This document shows positions 1-59,233 of a stretch of 64,000 nt of DNA, one piece after another. The DNA is from a virus (taxonomy: Duplodnaviria; Caudoviricetes), in the IMG/VR virus record IMGVR_UViG_3300037418_002332. One strand, given 5' to 3'. The notes beneath the pieces were generated by a model that was not told the origin of the DNA, did no database searches, and saw nothing but the letters and a program-made list of their open reading frames with translations. The number at the start of each line of letters is the position of its first letter. The stretch's first letter is position 1. The position numbers and the translations under genes were made by a program.

Positions 1-52
1 TGCTTCGAAGAAAATCTATAACCGAAAGAAGAAGAGCTTTTAATTCCTCAAT

Positions 53-220
53 GGTCATTGATAGACGGGTATGGTCTATCGAATGTTCCGAAGTTAGTTT
101 CATAGGGAAATATCACTTCACTGCCTCTTTCCTAACGAGGCAGTGAAGTGATATTGAGACCAATGGACGACTGAGAAAAATGGTTCCCTCCATGCTAGGT
201 TCGAGTCCTGGCGATGACCA
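53..220 (+). ncRNA. tRNA-shaped RNA with expanded core (no anticodon loop)
   Basis: GGTCATTG/CGATGACC acceptor-like stem, T-arm CTAGG-TTCGAGT-CCTGG, D-like hairpin GATAGAC/GTCTATC, AGGGAA/TTCCCT stem enclosing a perfect 19-bp hairpin (109-127/137-155). Confidence 0.6.
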
Positions 221-232
221 TTGAGGTATTAA

Positions 233-388
233 AAGTCAATTTTCGCCATACATCCGAGTGATGTTCGCGACGTTGCAGCAAGTGTTGGATGTCTATTGGG
301 GTTCGATTCCCTTAGTCGGTTTATGCTGACGCTGGCGCTAGAGATCGGAGGGAAACCTCGACATTGGATGTATGGCGAAAGTTGATTT
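233..388 (+). ncRNA. YrlA/Y-RNA-like permuted tRNA mimic
   Basis: long terminal stem (TTTCGCCATACATCC/GGATGTATGGCGAAA) enclosing T-arm GGGG-TTCGATT-CCCT, then closed stem GTCGG/CTGAC, then a GG-containing D-like loop. Confidence 0.55.
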
Positions 389-9626: not shown

Positions 9627-9657
9627 AATTCTTTTACAATGAACTGAAAGAAAGTGC

Positions 9658-19622: not shown

Positions 19623-20075
19623 ATGAAACATATCATATCAGCCGCCATTGCCTTTGCTGTTAAGCATCACGAAGGCCAATTCGACAAGGCTGGTATGCCT
19701 TACATCCTTCATCCTTTGAAGGTTATGTATTATGTTAAATCCAATGATGAAGAGTTGATGGCAATTGCTGTCCTCCATGATGTCATTGAAGATTGTTTCA
19801 CTCATGATCATGAAGCTGGCTATGCAGCTTTGAAGGCAATCGGAATGACACCACGAGTCATTGCTGGTGTTCGAGCCTTGACCAAGATCAAGGGAACCAA
19901 ATACGAAGATTACATTGACAATTTGATTGCAAATATTGATGCGGTCAAGGTCAAGATGGCTGATTTGCGCCATAACATGGATGTTCGCCGTTTACTCGGC
20001 GTCACCGACAAAGACATTAAACGCATTGAAAAATATGCGAAAACCTATCACAGATTAGAAGGAGTATTGGGATGA
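19623..20075 (+). CDS. HD-domain (p)ppGpp hydrolase-like protein (SpoT/Mesh1 family)
   Basis: HEGQFDKAGMPYILHP, AVLHDVIED, VKMADLRHN. Confidence 0.85.
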   Translation: MKHIISAAIAFAVKHHEGQFDKAGMPYILHPLKVMYYVKSNDEELMAIAVLHDVIEDCFTHDHEAGYAALKAIGMTPRVIAGVRALTKIKGTKYEDYIDNLIANIDAVKVKMADLRHNMDVRRLLGVTDKDIKRIEKYAKTYHRLEGVLG

Positions 20076-36440: not shown

Positions 36441-36698
36441 AAATAATTCACTTTAAAATCAAGGGTTTACAATTTTCATAGAAGAAATAATTTTGTAGAC
36501 CCTTGACAAACATCTAAAAATCAGCAATAAAATAATTCCTCGCGTGCGCGTTAACTTTTGAGGCATGAAATGCCGAAAAATGTTAAGCAACAAGTCCTTA
36601 ACAAGTCCCGTTAACTGATTCTCGCTGACTGCCTATTGATTCCGTTAACTCCCCTGCGTCCCTGAGGTTCGTATAGGGAAGAACATTCAAAATAATGC

Positions 36699-40069: not shown

Positions 40070-41407
40070 TTGGTAAAGCAAATATTCCTCAAAGGTAAAA
40101 AAGCAAATGAGGGATTTCTAGGAACTTTTCTTGATAATGATGCGTATGATGTTTTGCTGACCGAAGACGCTGATGTTTACAAGACAGATGCGTTTGGCGA
40201 AGATACCAGCGATAACAATGTTCTACTGAAATTTCGCAAGGGAGTTTTCTCAAAGGAACTCCGAGACGCAGCGTATAAAGGGTTGAAGGATGGCGCAACC
40301 ACATCACATAATCGTGGTATTGCTACTGGTCCAATTGAAGGCGATATTCAACGTCAATCCCCTGATTCAAAAAATGGTCGTGAATGGGTAACTGATTTTC
40401 AGTTTGAAATTTTGAATTTTTTCATTCAACCATCAGTTCTTTCATTGATGGGTGAAGATGAAAAATTGACCCTTGAAAAACTCATTGAAAAATTCAAGGG
40501 CAAGGAAAAAGAAGTTACATCTTTGCGTGGTCACGTATGGTTGACTGAAAAGATCGAACGCAATGAATTCAACTTCATGAACTGGGCACACGAAACTGCA
40601 AAGTTGCCTAAGACTGATCAAATGGAAGAAGCAAGAATTGTGTCTGAGGAATATATTTCTTCAACCAATTATGCAAATCCAGTTTTCAGTGGTGTAGGAG
40701 GTTTTTATGACAGATACCCAAGAATTCCTTATTGTAGAGCAACTGCCTACACAGCAAACAACAAAGAAAAATTTGAAATGTCTGTTCCATTCATTGAAGA
40801 TATTTCAGGATGGTTCCAAAAGTTGTTACCAACCAGATGGGCAGCTCAGAAAAAAGAAATCGTAAAGATTGATCCTGAGTACCATATTGGCAAATCAGTT
40901 TACACGACAATCACAATTAACAAAAATTTCCGTACTGCTTGTCACCGTGATGCTGGCGATTTGGAAGCTGGTTTCGGAAATCTGACGGCATTGTCTGACG
41001 ATCGTGAGTGGTCAGGTGGTTATCTTTGCTTCCCTGAATATCGTGTTGCAGTTGACATTCGACCTGGTGACGTTTTGTTGATGGACGTTCATGAAATTCA
41101 CGGCAACACCCCAATCTCAAAATTGAATGGTGATGCGCCTGAACGAATTTCAATCGTTTGTTATTTTCGTGAAAAAATGAATGGTTGCTCAGCAAAGTCC
41201 TATGAAGATTATCGTGAGAAGTTTGTCATGTGGAATAAGACTGACAAAAATTGCCCAAGCTGGAGAGAAAACTTCAATGGTGTCTATCCAGACATGTGGA
41301 AAAGCGAACGTTGGTACGATTACCTCAGAGCCAATCTTGGTGAGGACTCATTGAAACAATATCACCCTGAGGCATTCACTTCTGATTTGGCCGATTTCTT
41401 TAATTAG
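40070..41407 (+). CDS. TET/JBP-family 2OG-Fe(II) dioxygenase
   Basis: TACHRDAGD (HxD), HEIHGNTP (distal H), ERISIVCYFRE (2OG-binding R). Confidence 0.85.
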   Translation: MVKQIFLKGKKANEGFLGTFLDNDAYDVLLTEDADVYKTDAFGEDTSDNNVLLKFRKGVFSKELRDAAYKGLKDGATTSHNRGIATGPIEGDIQRQSPDSKNGREWVTDFQFEILNFFIQPSVLSLMGEDEKLTLEKLIEKFKGKEKEVTSLRGHVWLTEKIERNEFNFMNWAHETAKLPKTDQMEEARIVSEEYISSTNYANPVFSGVGGFYDRYPRIPYCRATAYTANNKEKFEMSVPFIEDISGWFQKLLPTRWAAQKKEIVKIDPEYHIGKSVYTTITINKNFRTACHRDAGDLEAGFGNLTALSDDREWSGGYLCFPEYRVAVDIRPGDVLLMDVHEIHGNTPISKLNGDAPERISIVCYFREKMNGCSAKSYEDYREKFVMWNKTDKNCPSWRENFNGVYPDMWKSERWYDYLRANLGEDSLKQYHPEAFTSDLADFFN

Positions 41408-58571: not shown

Positions 58572-58976
58572 CTATTTGGTGTAAAAGCTAAATAGGATTG
58601 TTGCCGTTGATATTTCAACGTTAAGGTGTGGAACACGCGGGTGCAATTCCCGCCGTCTCCACCATGGCTAAAACGAGACTGGACTGGTCATGTTTACATG
58701 ATTCGGAAAAGCGTACAGATGTTATGTTAGTTAGTCAATAATCTTCGAGAAATCGCCATTATTGAGGTTGACATAGCTTGAAATCGTTTTAGCTTTGATG
58801 GGGACGAATTAGGATCGACTCCGCGCGCATAGGAAGAAAAGTAGGCAATTCGCTGACCGAGCGGTCAAACAAAATAAAGGACAACGATAACTTCGTTCCT
58901 ATGGCAGTTGCTGCGTAAGCAGTAGACTCCAATGAGCTTTTGCCGGTTTTGGCTTGGAAACAGAACAAAACCGGCA
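58572..58976 (+). ncRNA. ssrA: circularly permuted two-piece tmRNA
   Basis: acceptor piece GCGGG-TGCAATT-CCCGC-CGTCTCC-ACCA (ends 58664) precedes GGGGACG (58800), G3.U70; tag ORF 58880-58918 DNDNFVPMAVAA*. Confidence 0.92.
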
Positions 58977-59233
58977 TTCATTACATTCAACGAAGATTTC
59001 TCTTTACTCAATGAAATGTTTCAGTTATTGTTATTATAGTGGTAATGGAGATTGAAATGGCCGCTATTTCTGACGCTGAATGGGTAAAGCTGGTTCGTGA
59101 TGAGGTGTTGCGGGCTTTGATGCTTTCGCCTCTGACTAAAAATGAAATTTTGGATCTTCTTGATTCTCTGCGCGCTGAAGTGGCTGCGCAGCCGGTTTCT
59201 AAGGTGACTCCTTCGGTCTGAGGTTCTTTTAAT

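Follow-up and report, generated by a model that had tools for sequence, protein, structure and literature searches.

What is the 199-nt sequence that lies within a tRNA island of a large T4-like phage, resembles a tRNA in its upper half and has a long double-stranded rod where the anticodon arm would be? The initial annotation had read it as a non-decoding tRNA mimic that displays a dsRNA rod. We find that the element is a strongly structured, non-decoding and tRNA-like module of the + strand. What such a module does is a separate matter, and on this point several explanations have to be weighed, as we discuss below.

Genomic setting

The DNA analysed here, which we call the window, is a stretch of 64,000 nucleotides and corresponds to bases 41197-105196 of a 247-kb virus record (G000), which is 97% complete. 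Positions of the element and its parts are those of the window. The record encodes a T4-type major capsid protein (428 bits to the Gp23 Pfam model). ARAGORN and Rfam find 33 tRNA genes and a permuted tmRNA gene in the 247-kb record; both programs place the tmRNA gene at 58572-59009. The element (37-235, + strand) is single-copy in this genome and sits in a tRNA island whose genes lie on the + strand. Its 5' neighbours encode a SpoU methylase, a trypsin-like protease, a NUDIX protein and a PTH2 peptidyl-tRNA hydrolase, the last of which is encoded in identical form on five contigs. The unit itself runs from a promoter through a 32-codon reading frame (ORF32) to the element, then to a second stem-bounded module and to the genes for tRNA-Glu, tRNA-Leu and tRNA-Gly.

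The promoter belongs to a family of the form GAAGAAAGTNCTTTACTT-N-TATAATG with 14 members in the genome, every one of them on the + strand. The fuller form reads GAAGAAAGT(G/T)CTTTACTT, a spacer and TATAATG..TGTA, and is often followed by TAAGG, a Shine-Dalgarno sequence; examples are found at G000 41063, 40342 and 50831 (the last near window position 9635). One copy lies about 120 nt 5' of the element, which is the predicted first RNA module of an early-type transcription unit.

The restriction of the promoter family to one strand places the RNA on the + strand, and so does the pairing itself. Four pairs that belong to P1, to the T-stem or to the outer part of the rod (T59.G213, T196.G210, T95.G169 and T100.G166) are G.U on the + strand and would be A.C mismatches on the - strand. 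The minimum free energy of the + strand (-91.3 kcal/mol) is better by 11 than that of the - strand (-80.4 kcal/mol). The - strand fold is also strong (z = -9.9), folding nearly as well because of the palindrome.

Other tRNA-like sequences occur in this region. Before the window, at G000 36522-36598, lies a tRNA with the anticodon CTA, named 'Pyl' by ARAGORN, which is a possible amber suppressor; its T-arm is that of the tRNA-Lys(TTT) at 40252-40334. Within the window, the sequence at 1173-1235 is tRNA-like, lacks a D-arm and scores 26.0 bits against an Rfam tRNA gathering score of 29. At 955-1135 the parts of a tRNA stand in permuted order, with a T-arm and a 3' acceptor strand ending in ACCA, followed by the matching 5' acceptor strand, GGACGAG, and a D-arm. 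A weak cyano_tmRNA match (E = 1.8) falls inside this arrangement at 983-1023; candidate identities for the whole are a permuted tRNA and a fragment that resembles a Y RNA or a tmRNA. At G000 40116-40342 (384-610 in L001), the 3' end of a 64-codon reading frame can pair with tRNA-Lys, namely with its 3' end and its trailer, at a distance of 227 nt, in a layout that recalls that of ORF32 and P1. The pairing covers 16 of 18 positions, several of them as G.U, and is not beyond chance, about 0.3 being expected by our own estimate.

Fold of the element

The stability of the fold is far above chance: the minimum free energy of 37-235 on the + strand is -91.3 kcal/mol, against -48.2 +/- 4.1 kcal/mol for 200 shuffles (z = -10.45). 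The helices of P1, the D-like hairpin and the T-arm have ensemble probabilities of 0.96-0.999. A check of the sequence found every complementarity that the initial annotation had listed, each in its place. The features are collected in Table 1.

Table 1. Features of the element and of its immediate surroundings, in window coordinates.
Feature	Position	Strand	Remarks
ORF32	-55 to 43 (L001 1409-1507)	+	32 codons, Lys-rich; the window holds the 3' part, 1-43
P1 closing stem	37-60 with 212-235	+	22 Watson-Crick pairs, one G.U (T59.G213), one U.U mismatch (45/227); probability 0.96
Acceptor-like strand	53/54-60	+	inner 7-8 nt of the 5' strand of P1
D-like hairpin	60-80	+	ATAGAC/GTCTAT (61-66/74-79), 6-7 bp, loop GGGUAUG; probability 0.998
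Long rod, replacing the anticodon arm	92-172	+	outer helices and perfect 19-bp hairpin; in MFE and centroid folds; probabilities 0.74-0.99
Perfect 19-bp hairpin	109-127/137-155	+	9-nt loop, 128-136
Small hairpin, variable-arm position	180-193	+	AUGG-UUCCCU-CCAU; probability 0.95
T-arm	194-212	+	CTAGG-TTCGAGT-CCTGG (195-211), 5-6 bp including one G.U, loop UUCGAGU; probability 0.999
Second structured module	236-385	+	closing stem of ~22 bp; MFE -66.3 kcal/mol, z = -5.8

The closing stem had been described as complementary at 22 of 24 positions, which holds for its Watson-Crick pairs, the other two positions being the G.U pair and the U.U mismatch. Its inner 8 bp are GGTCATTG/CGATGACC. The T-arm directly adjoins the 3' strand of P1 with no spacer between them, and P1 stacked on the T-stem makes a helix of about 30 bp; G194-C212 is a possible sixth pair of the T-arm. 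The T-loop agrees with the T-loop consensus of the phage's own tRNAs. The D-like hairpin had been given 7 bp, of which the seventh, G60-C80, competes with G60-C212. Its loop has the GG of a tRNA D-loop and lacks A14 and the other D-loop consensus bases.

The 11-mer AATGGTCATTG, which forms positions 50-60 of P1, has four copies in the genome where about 0.1 would be expected. The other copies, at G000 94254, 118535 and 75806 (the last on the - strand), lie in unrelated coding contexts. Antisense targets were also considered and set aside, as the 12-mer matches to the element elsewhere in the genome look like chance.

The interior of the element differs from the initial model, which had placed a stem of AGGGAA with TTCCCT in the anticodon position. 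The sequences AGGGA and TCCCT (104-108/185-189) are complementary, but their pairing has an ensemble probability of about 0, and a fold constrained to contain it is less stable by 5.9 kcal/mol. The stem is also out of the register of a tRNA anticodon stem, because 24 nt (80-103) without a tRNA counterpart intervene between it and the D-like hairpin. Preferred over this pairing are the rod, extended to 92-172, and the AUGG/CCAU hairpin at 180-193. The outer helices of the rod are formed by 92-95/169-172, 99-103/163-167 and 105-106/160-161, with two G.U pairs among them. The 19-bp hairpin at its end is the longest perfect hairpin of the 247-kb genome, in which the runner-up has 16 bp.

The second structured module follows the element with zero spacer and has an internal T-loop motif of its own, GGGG-TTCGATT-CCCT. 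The two modules stay separate domains in the fold of the whole 546-nt leader. Stem-bounded modules set side by side are a recurrent design in this leader.

Inversion of the hairpin loop

Across 64 kb, only seven positions distinguish the window from the genome record, and five of the seven belong to an inversion of the 9-nt loop of the perfect hairpin (128-136), which reads TTTCCTAAC in the window and GTTAGGAAA, the exact reverse complement, in G000. The remaining differences are single bases at window positions 19856 and 27887. At least two near-identical genomes therefore exist, and between them the 19-bp hairpin apparently flips faster than point changes accumulate. Since the loop is inverted between genomes that are otherwise so similar, its sequence is probably not functional. 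The comparison suggests that the perfect repeat undergoes a flip-flop at the level of DNA, and a DNA-level process may also be what keeps it perfect. The inversion says nothing against an RNA role of the helix.

Relation to tRNA genes

The element is not a tRNA gene. ARAGORN makes no call at 37-235 with default settings, and Rfam makes no tRNA call there, either at the gathering score or at E <= 10. Relaxed ARAGORN settings give a weak 'tRNA-Asn with a 77-nt intron' (anticodon GTT), with a D stem and an anticodon stem of 3 bp each. An intron-bearing or interrupted tRNA was rejected as an explanation, this relaxed Asn(GTT) model being its only trace. A scan of 6,216 constructs, each with a single deletion between 62 and 197, returned no ARAGORN call at default thresholds, while a control tRNA was found; the calls made on the deletion constructs at relaxed thresholds have mutually inconsistent anticodons. 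All 33 of the phage's tRNA genes encode CCA, which is absent in register from the element: after the T-arm the sequence reads ...CGATGACC-ATTG, and pairing continues. Nor is the element a recent copy of any resident tRNA.

The tRNA-like top half is nevertheless genuine, as the initial annotation had held. A T-arm with a consensus loop, CTAGG-UUCGAGU-CCUGG, is stacked on the acceptor helix (probability 0.999), its canonical T-loop stands beside the acceptor-like 3' strand, and GG is present in the D-like loop. The same annotation had called the element non-decoding, and this is borne out by the lack of an anticodon arm, of a CCA in register, of any tRNA call at default thresholds and of any deletion that restores a tRNA.

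Search for relatives

The initial annotation had pointed to a homologue search, and this was run with a covariance model of the element (R1) as well as by sequence. No homologue was found by blastn against 50,697 phage records or by nhmmer against 49 loci. R1 had no match in 49 loci that adjoin PTH2 homologues, in 28 whole records, or in the five nearest capsid relatives. Among the latter is G029, a complete genome of 256 kb and the nearest complete relative (capsid protein 69% identical), whose tRNA regions gave no match to R1 even with the filters off. G029 is not syntenic here: the neighbouring genes are absent or elsewhere, and the element is absent. In total, about 65 related phage records were searched in this way and contained no homologue of the element. 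A scan for a T-arm combined with a long closing stem recovered only ordinary tRNAs with chance pairing of their flanks, and exact pattern scans for parts of the element in viral, metagenome and genome collections gave no match or chance matches in coding DNA.

T4 RNA C, which the initial annotation had mentioned, was considered as a possible relative. By sequence, rnaC is found only in Tevenvirinae (748 records, with full-length matches down to about 79% identity), and Rfam has no model for it. A model built from four rnaC sequences (R2) recovers T4 rnaC at 165 bits. On the element R2 scores 16.6 bits (E ~0.007), the best match in 20 kb. The same model gives 15.0 bits to a tRNA-Ser, 14.1 bits to the rod alone on the - strand and 17.1 bits to a plain tRNA of another phage. 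The score of the element is thus no better than that of ordinary tRNAs (15-17.1 bits), which makes the element an analogue of rnaC in build, with no detectable homology. As a sign of membership in the rnaC family, the R2 score stays at noise level.

ORF32 and the ArfA lead

ORF32 runs into P1: its stop codon (TAA, 41-43) is part of the 5' strand of this stem and ends 2 nt short of the U.U mismatch. The reading frame has a Shine-Dalgarno sequence, AAGGAA, 7 nt 5' of its ATG, with the phage-type promoter further 5'. Its product matches phrog_20887 weakly (E = 0.0017; E = 2.5e-4 per genome), and the phrog_20887 member of another phage is Pfam DUF7230. That DUF7230 member aligns over 32 residues with E. 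coli ArfA (positions 14-45; 38% identity, E = 3e-4), an hhalign alignment of ArfA with DUF7230 has a probability of 41% (E = 2.8e-4), and one source labels one member of the family ArfA. Since DUF7230 aligns to the core of E. coli ArfA, its members may be ribosome-rescue peptides of phages that resemble ArfA. ORF32 itself is connected to DUF7230 weakly (hhalign E = 0.018, with a probability of 2.5%): it has no match to Pfam DUF7230 or Pfam ArfA, no direct similarity to ArfA and no match in tblastn. No hairpin was found 3' of the DUF7230 gene of the other phage.

The arfA mRNA carries a stem-loop that is cut by RNase III to yield a non-stop mRNA, and because of this truncation ArfA is made only when tmRNA fails (PMC8012679). 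At the present locus, too, a duplex of at least 20 bp overlaps the 3' end of a reading frame (5' strand of P1 at 37-60, stop codon at 41-43). The stop of a tiny basic reading frame within a closing stem, in a phage that has its own tmRNA, would link tRNA-like RNAs, RNase III processing and ribosome rescue.

Possible functions and their weight

The reading that we favour, and to which we give a probability of about one half, is that the element encodes a tRNA-derived, non-decoding and tRNA-like stable RNA that is cut out at P1 by host RNase III. In its favour are the strength of the fold, the signs of a + strand transcript, the promoter, the evidence that the element is no tRNA gene, the second module of similar design next to it and the precedent of T4 rnaC. 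The length of P1 (24 bp) would make it a substrate of host RNase III; no RNase III gene was found in the phage genome, so that any such processing would fall to the host enzyme. Two staggered cuts in P1 would fix where the ORF32 mRNA ends and would set free a compact RNA, about 170-190 nt long, which would persist as a stable tRNA-like species by analogy with T4 RNA C. In this RNA the rod would take the place of the decoding arm, and the intact T-loop/acceptor minihelix would be a ligand for proteins that read the elbow or top half of tRNAs, candidates being RNase P, tRNase Z, the CCA-adding enzyme and T-loop modification enzymes. The element may serve as a decoy or scaffold, or merely as a processing and insulating module, or as both. 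Several points stand against this reading: a helix between leader and trailer would hinder RNase P; the loop of the rod is inverted between two near-identical genomes; and the phages compared appear to hold no homologue, the nearest complete relative, G029, being without the element and not syntenic here.

Part of the same evidence could instead reflect cis-acting processing or regulation of ORF32. On this account ORF32 would be an ArfA-like rescue peptide and P1 the counterpart of the arfA stem-loop, with the tRNA-like interior secondary; if RNase III truncated the ORF32 mRNA at the stop codon or within a few nucleotides of it, output would be gated by trans-translation. The position of the stop codon (41-43) within the 5' strand of P1, the phrog_20887 match (E = 0.0017) with a DUF7230 member that aligns to ArfA, the arfA precedent of an RNase III-cut stem-loop that gives a non-stop mRNA (PMC8012679) and the phage tmRNA gene (58572-59009) all speak for it. 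We nonetheless consider it unlikely, though it deserves some weight and can coexist with the favoured reading. ORF32 is weakly tied to DUF7230 (hhalign 2.5%) and has no direct similarity to ArfA; the ORF32 peptide is rich in Lys, so that composition may drive its matches; the DUF7230 gene of the other phage has no hairpin behind it; a cut by RNase III in the middle of the helix would leave the stop codon intact; and a plain hairpin would suffice for such a purpose, which leaves the T-arm, the D-like loop and the rod unexplained. A more ambitious proposal, which we regard as a long shot, is a unit for both rescue and mimicry. Here an ArfA-like peptide would be made from an mRNA whose 3' end is set by RNase III in P1 and whose output is gated by the phage tmRNA, and the released top-half mimic with its dsRNA rod would be a ligand for tRNA-recognising proteins of the host or phage. 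If true, this would mean that a counterpart of T4 RNA C had arisen independently, without homology to it, and that RNAs of this sort play some general and as yet unknown role in large phages.

The remaining explanations deny the RNA a novel function of its own or assign it to a known class. That it is a decaying tRNA pseudogene, with a palindrome inserted or grown and no function of its own, would suit a tRNA island with several odd or sub-threshold tRNA-like sequences, an orphan that is absent from the nearest relative, a degenerate D-loop and the relaxed ARAGORN call of 'tRNA-Asn with a 77-nt intron'. This is improbable, however, as not one of the 6,216 deletions gives a default tRNA and the relaxed anticodons disagree, the T-loop is a perfect consensus, and no recent copy of the phage's tRNAs is seen. 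The extension of the acceptor by 16 more paired positions is a gain and not decay, and stems this good beside a T-arm are expected about 3.5e-5 times genome-wide by our own estimate. Even less probable is a DNA-level element, whether a palindrome that forms a cruciform or binds a protein, or an insertion of the MITE type bounded by 24-bp terminal inverted repeats, with the RNA fold incidental. The 19-bp inverted repeat does flip its spacer between near-identical genomes, which is a DNA-level event, the - strand folds well (z = -9.9) and the 24-bp terminal inverted repeats are like the ends of a MITE. Yet the element is single-copy and exact scans gave only chance matches in coding DNA; the four G.U pairs favour a + strand RNA; a T-loop and a tRNA-like register would be meaningless as DNA; and a retron is disfavoured by the lack of a reverse transcriptase. 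It is very improbable, finally, that the element belongs to another known class of RNA, such as Y RNA (YrlA-type), 6S RNA or tmRNA-like RNA. A long closing stem with tRNA-like parts recalls YrlA, P1 contains GGUC/GACC as does the Ro-binding helix of Y RNAs, and a length of about 200 nt with a closing stem, an irregular middle and an apical stem recalls 6S RNA. Against this, Rfam searches of the element at E <= 10 returned only chance matches to miRNA hairpins, with no YrlA, Y_RNA or 6S; the arms stand in the order of a tRNA and not in the permuted order of YrlA, with no bulged Ro site; neither a TROVE/Ro domain (positive controls were found) nor an RtcB gene was detected in the 247-kb genome; and the CCA, G3.U70 and tag reading frame of tmRNA are absent.

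Comparison with known systems

With a canonical tRNA (RF00005) the element shares the acceptor-like helix, the T-arm in register, the GG hairpin on the D side and a place among tRNA genes. It is unlike a tRNA in its length of 199 nt and in having no anticodon arm and no CCA. The hallmarks of tmRNA are tRNA-Ala-like ends with CCA, a tag reading frame and pseudoknots; this class was rejected, ARAGORN and Rfam being silent for it at 37-235 and CCA, G3.U70 and tag frame lacking. Retron ncRNAs have terminal inverted repeats, a long msd hairpin and an adjoining reverse transcriptase gene. The 247-kb genome has no match to RVT_1, and what follows the element on its 3' side is RNAs and tRNAs; a retron ncRNA was rejected as well.

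YrlA is likewise modular: its 5' and 3' ends pair in a long stem, and other parts of it resemble a T-arm and a D-arm. Its tRNA-like parts are circularly permuted, T-arm, acceptor hairpin and D-arm following one another on the Ro-binding stem, and a Ro (TROVE) gene is usually nearby. The terminal stem of YrlA replaces the anticodon stem, whereas in the element the tRNA order is kept and the terminal stem extends the acceptor. Assignment to Y RNA/YrlA was rejected on the arm order (D-like, rod, T), the lack of an Rfam match and the lack of a TROVE domain.

The E. coli arfA stem-loop resembles P1 in being a duplex of at least 20 bp that comes right after the basic C-terminal motif of a tiny Lys/Arg-rich reading frame, in a genome with tmRNA. 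There, however, it is a simple hairpin; here it is a long-range helix around a 150-nt tRNA-like domain, the stop codon precedes most of the stem, and the relation of ORF32 to ArfA is weak and indirect.

The closest likeness in build is to T4 RNA C, which accumulates as RNA in infection and whose function is unknown (PMC3014915, PMC9697503). The gene rnaC ('species 1 RNA') has 139 nt (NC_000866 70908-71046; L143 1409-1547) and lies in the T4 tRNA cluster. Its predicted fold comprises a short terminal helix, a long rod, a 10-bp hairpin and a canonical T-arm. Compensatory changes occur in 11 of its 47 predicted pairs among four Tevenvirinae copies and support a structure in which T4 RNA C combines a tRNA-like top half and a rod. 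T4 species I RNA was reportedly shown in an older study to be cleaved by RNase III; we do not count this as evidence here. The comparison with T4 RNA C that the initial annotation had made is apt at the level of build, which in T4 RNA C is backed by the covariation in these four copies. Both RNAs are encoded inside a phage tRNA cluster on the strand of the tRNAs. Both have a canonical T-arm right before the 3' strand of an acceptor-like terminal helix, no anticodon, a long and mostly paired rod in the space of the D and anticodon arms, and a second hairpin in the variable-arm position; both rods begin GG-AA-AUAUC. They differ in that the terminal helix of rnaC has 7 positions with U.U mismatches and no 24-bp closing stem. 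The T4 RNA also has no D-like hairpin and no perfect hairpin, both of which the element has, together with a terminal helix that is longer by 16 bp. As an orphan, the element may be an oddity of its lineage. Yet the role of T4 RNA C has been a puzzle since the 1970s, for about 50 years, and finding the same build in a T4-like phage that is only very distantly related would suggest selection on the build as such. The element would then offer a second system in which to seek the function of T4 RNA C.
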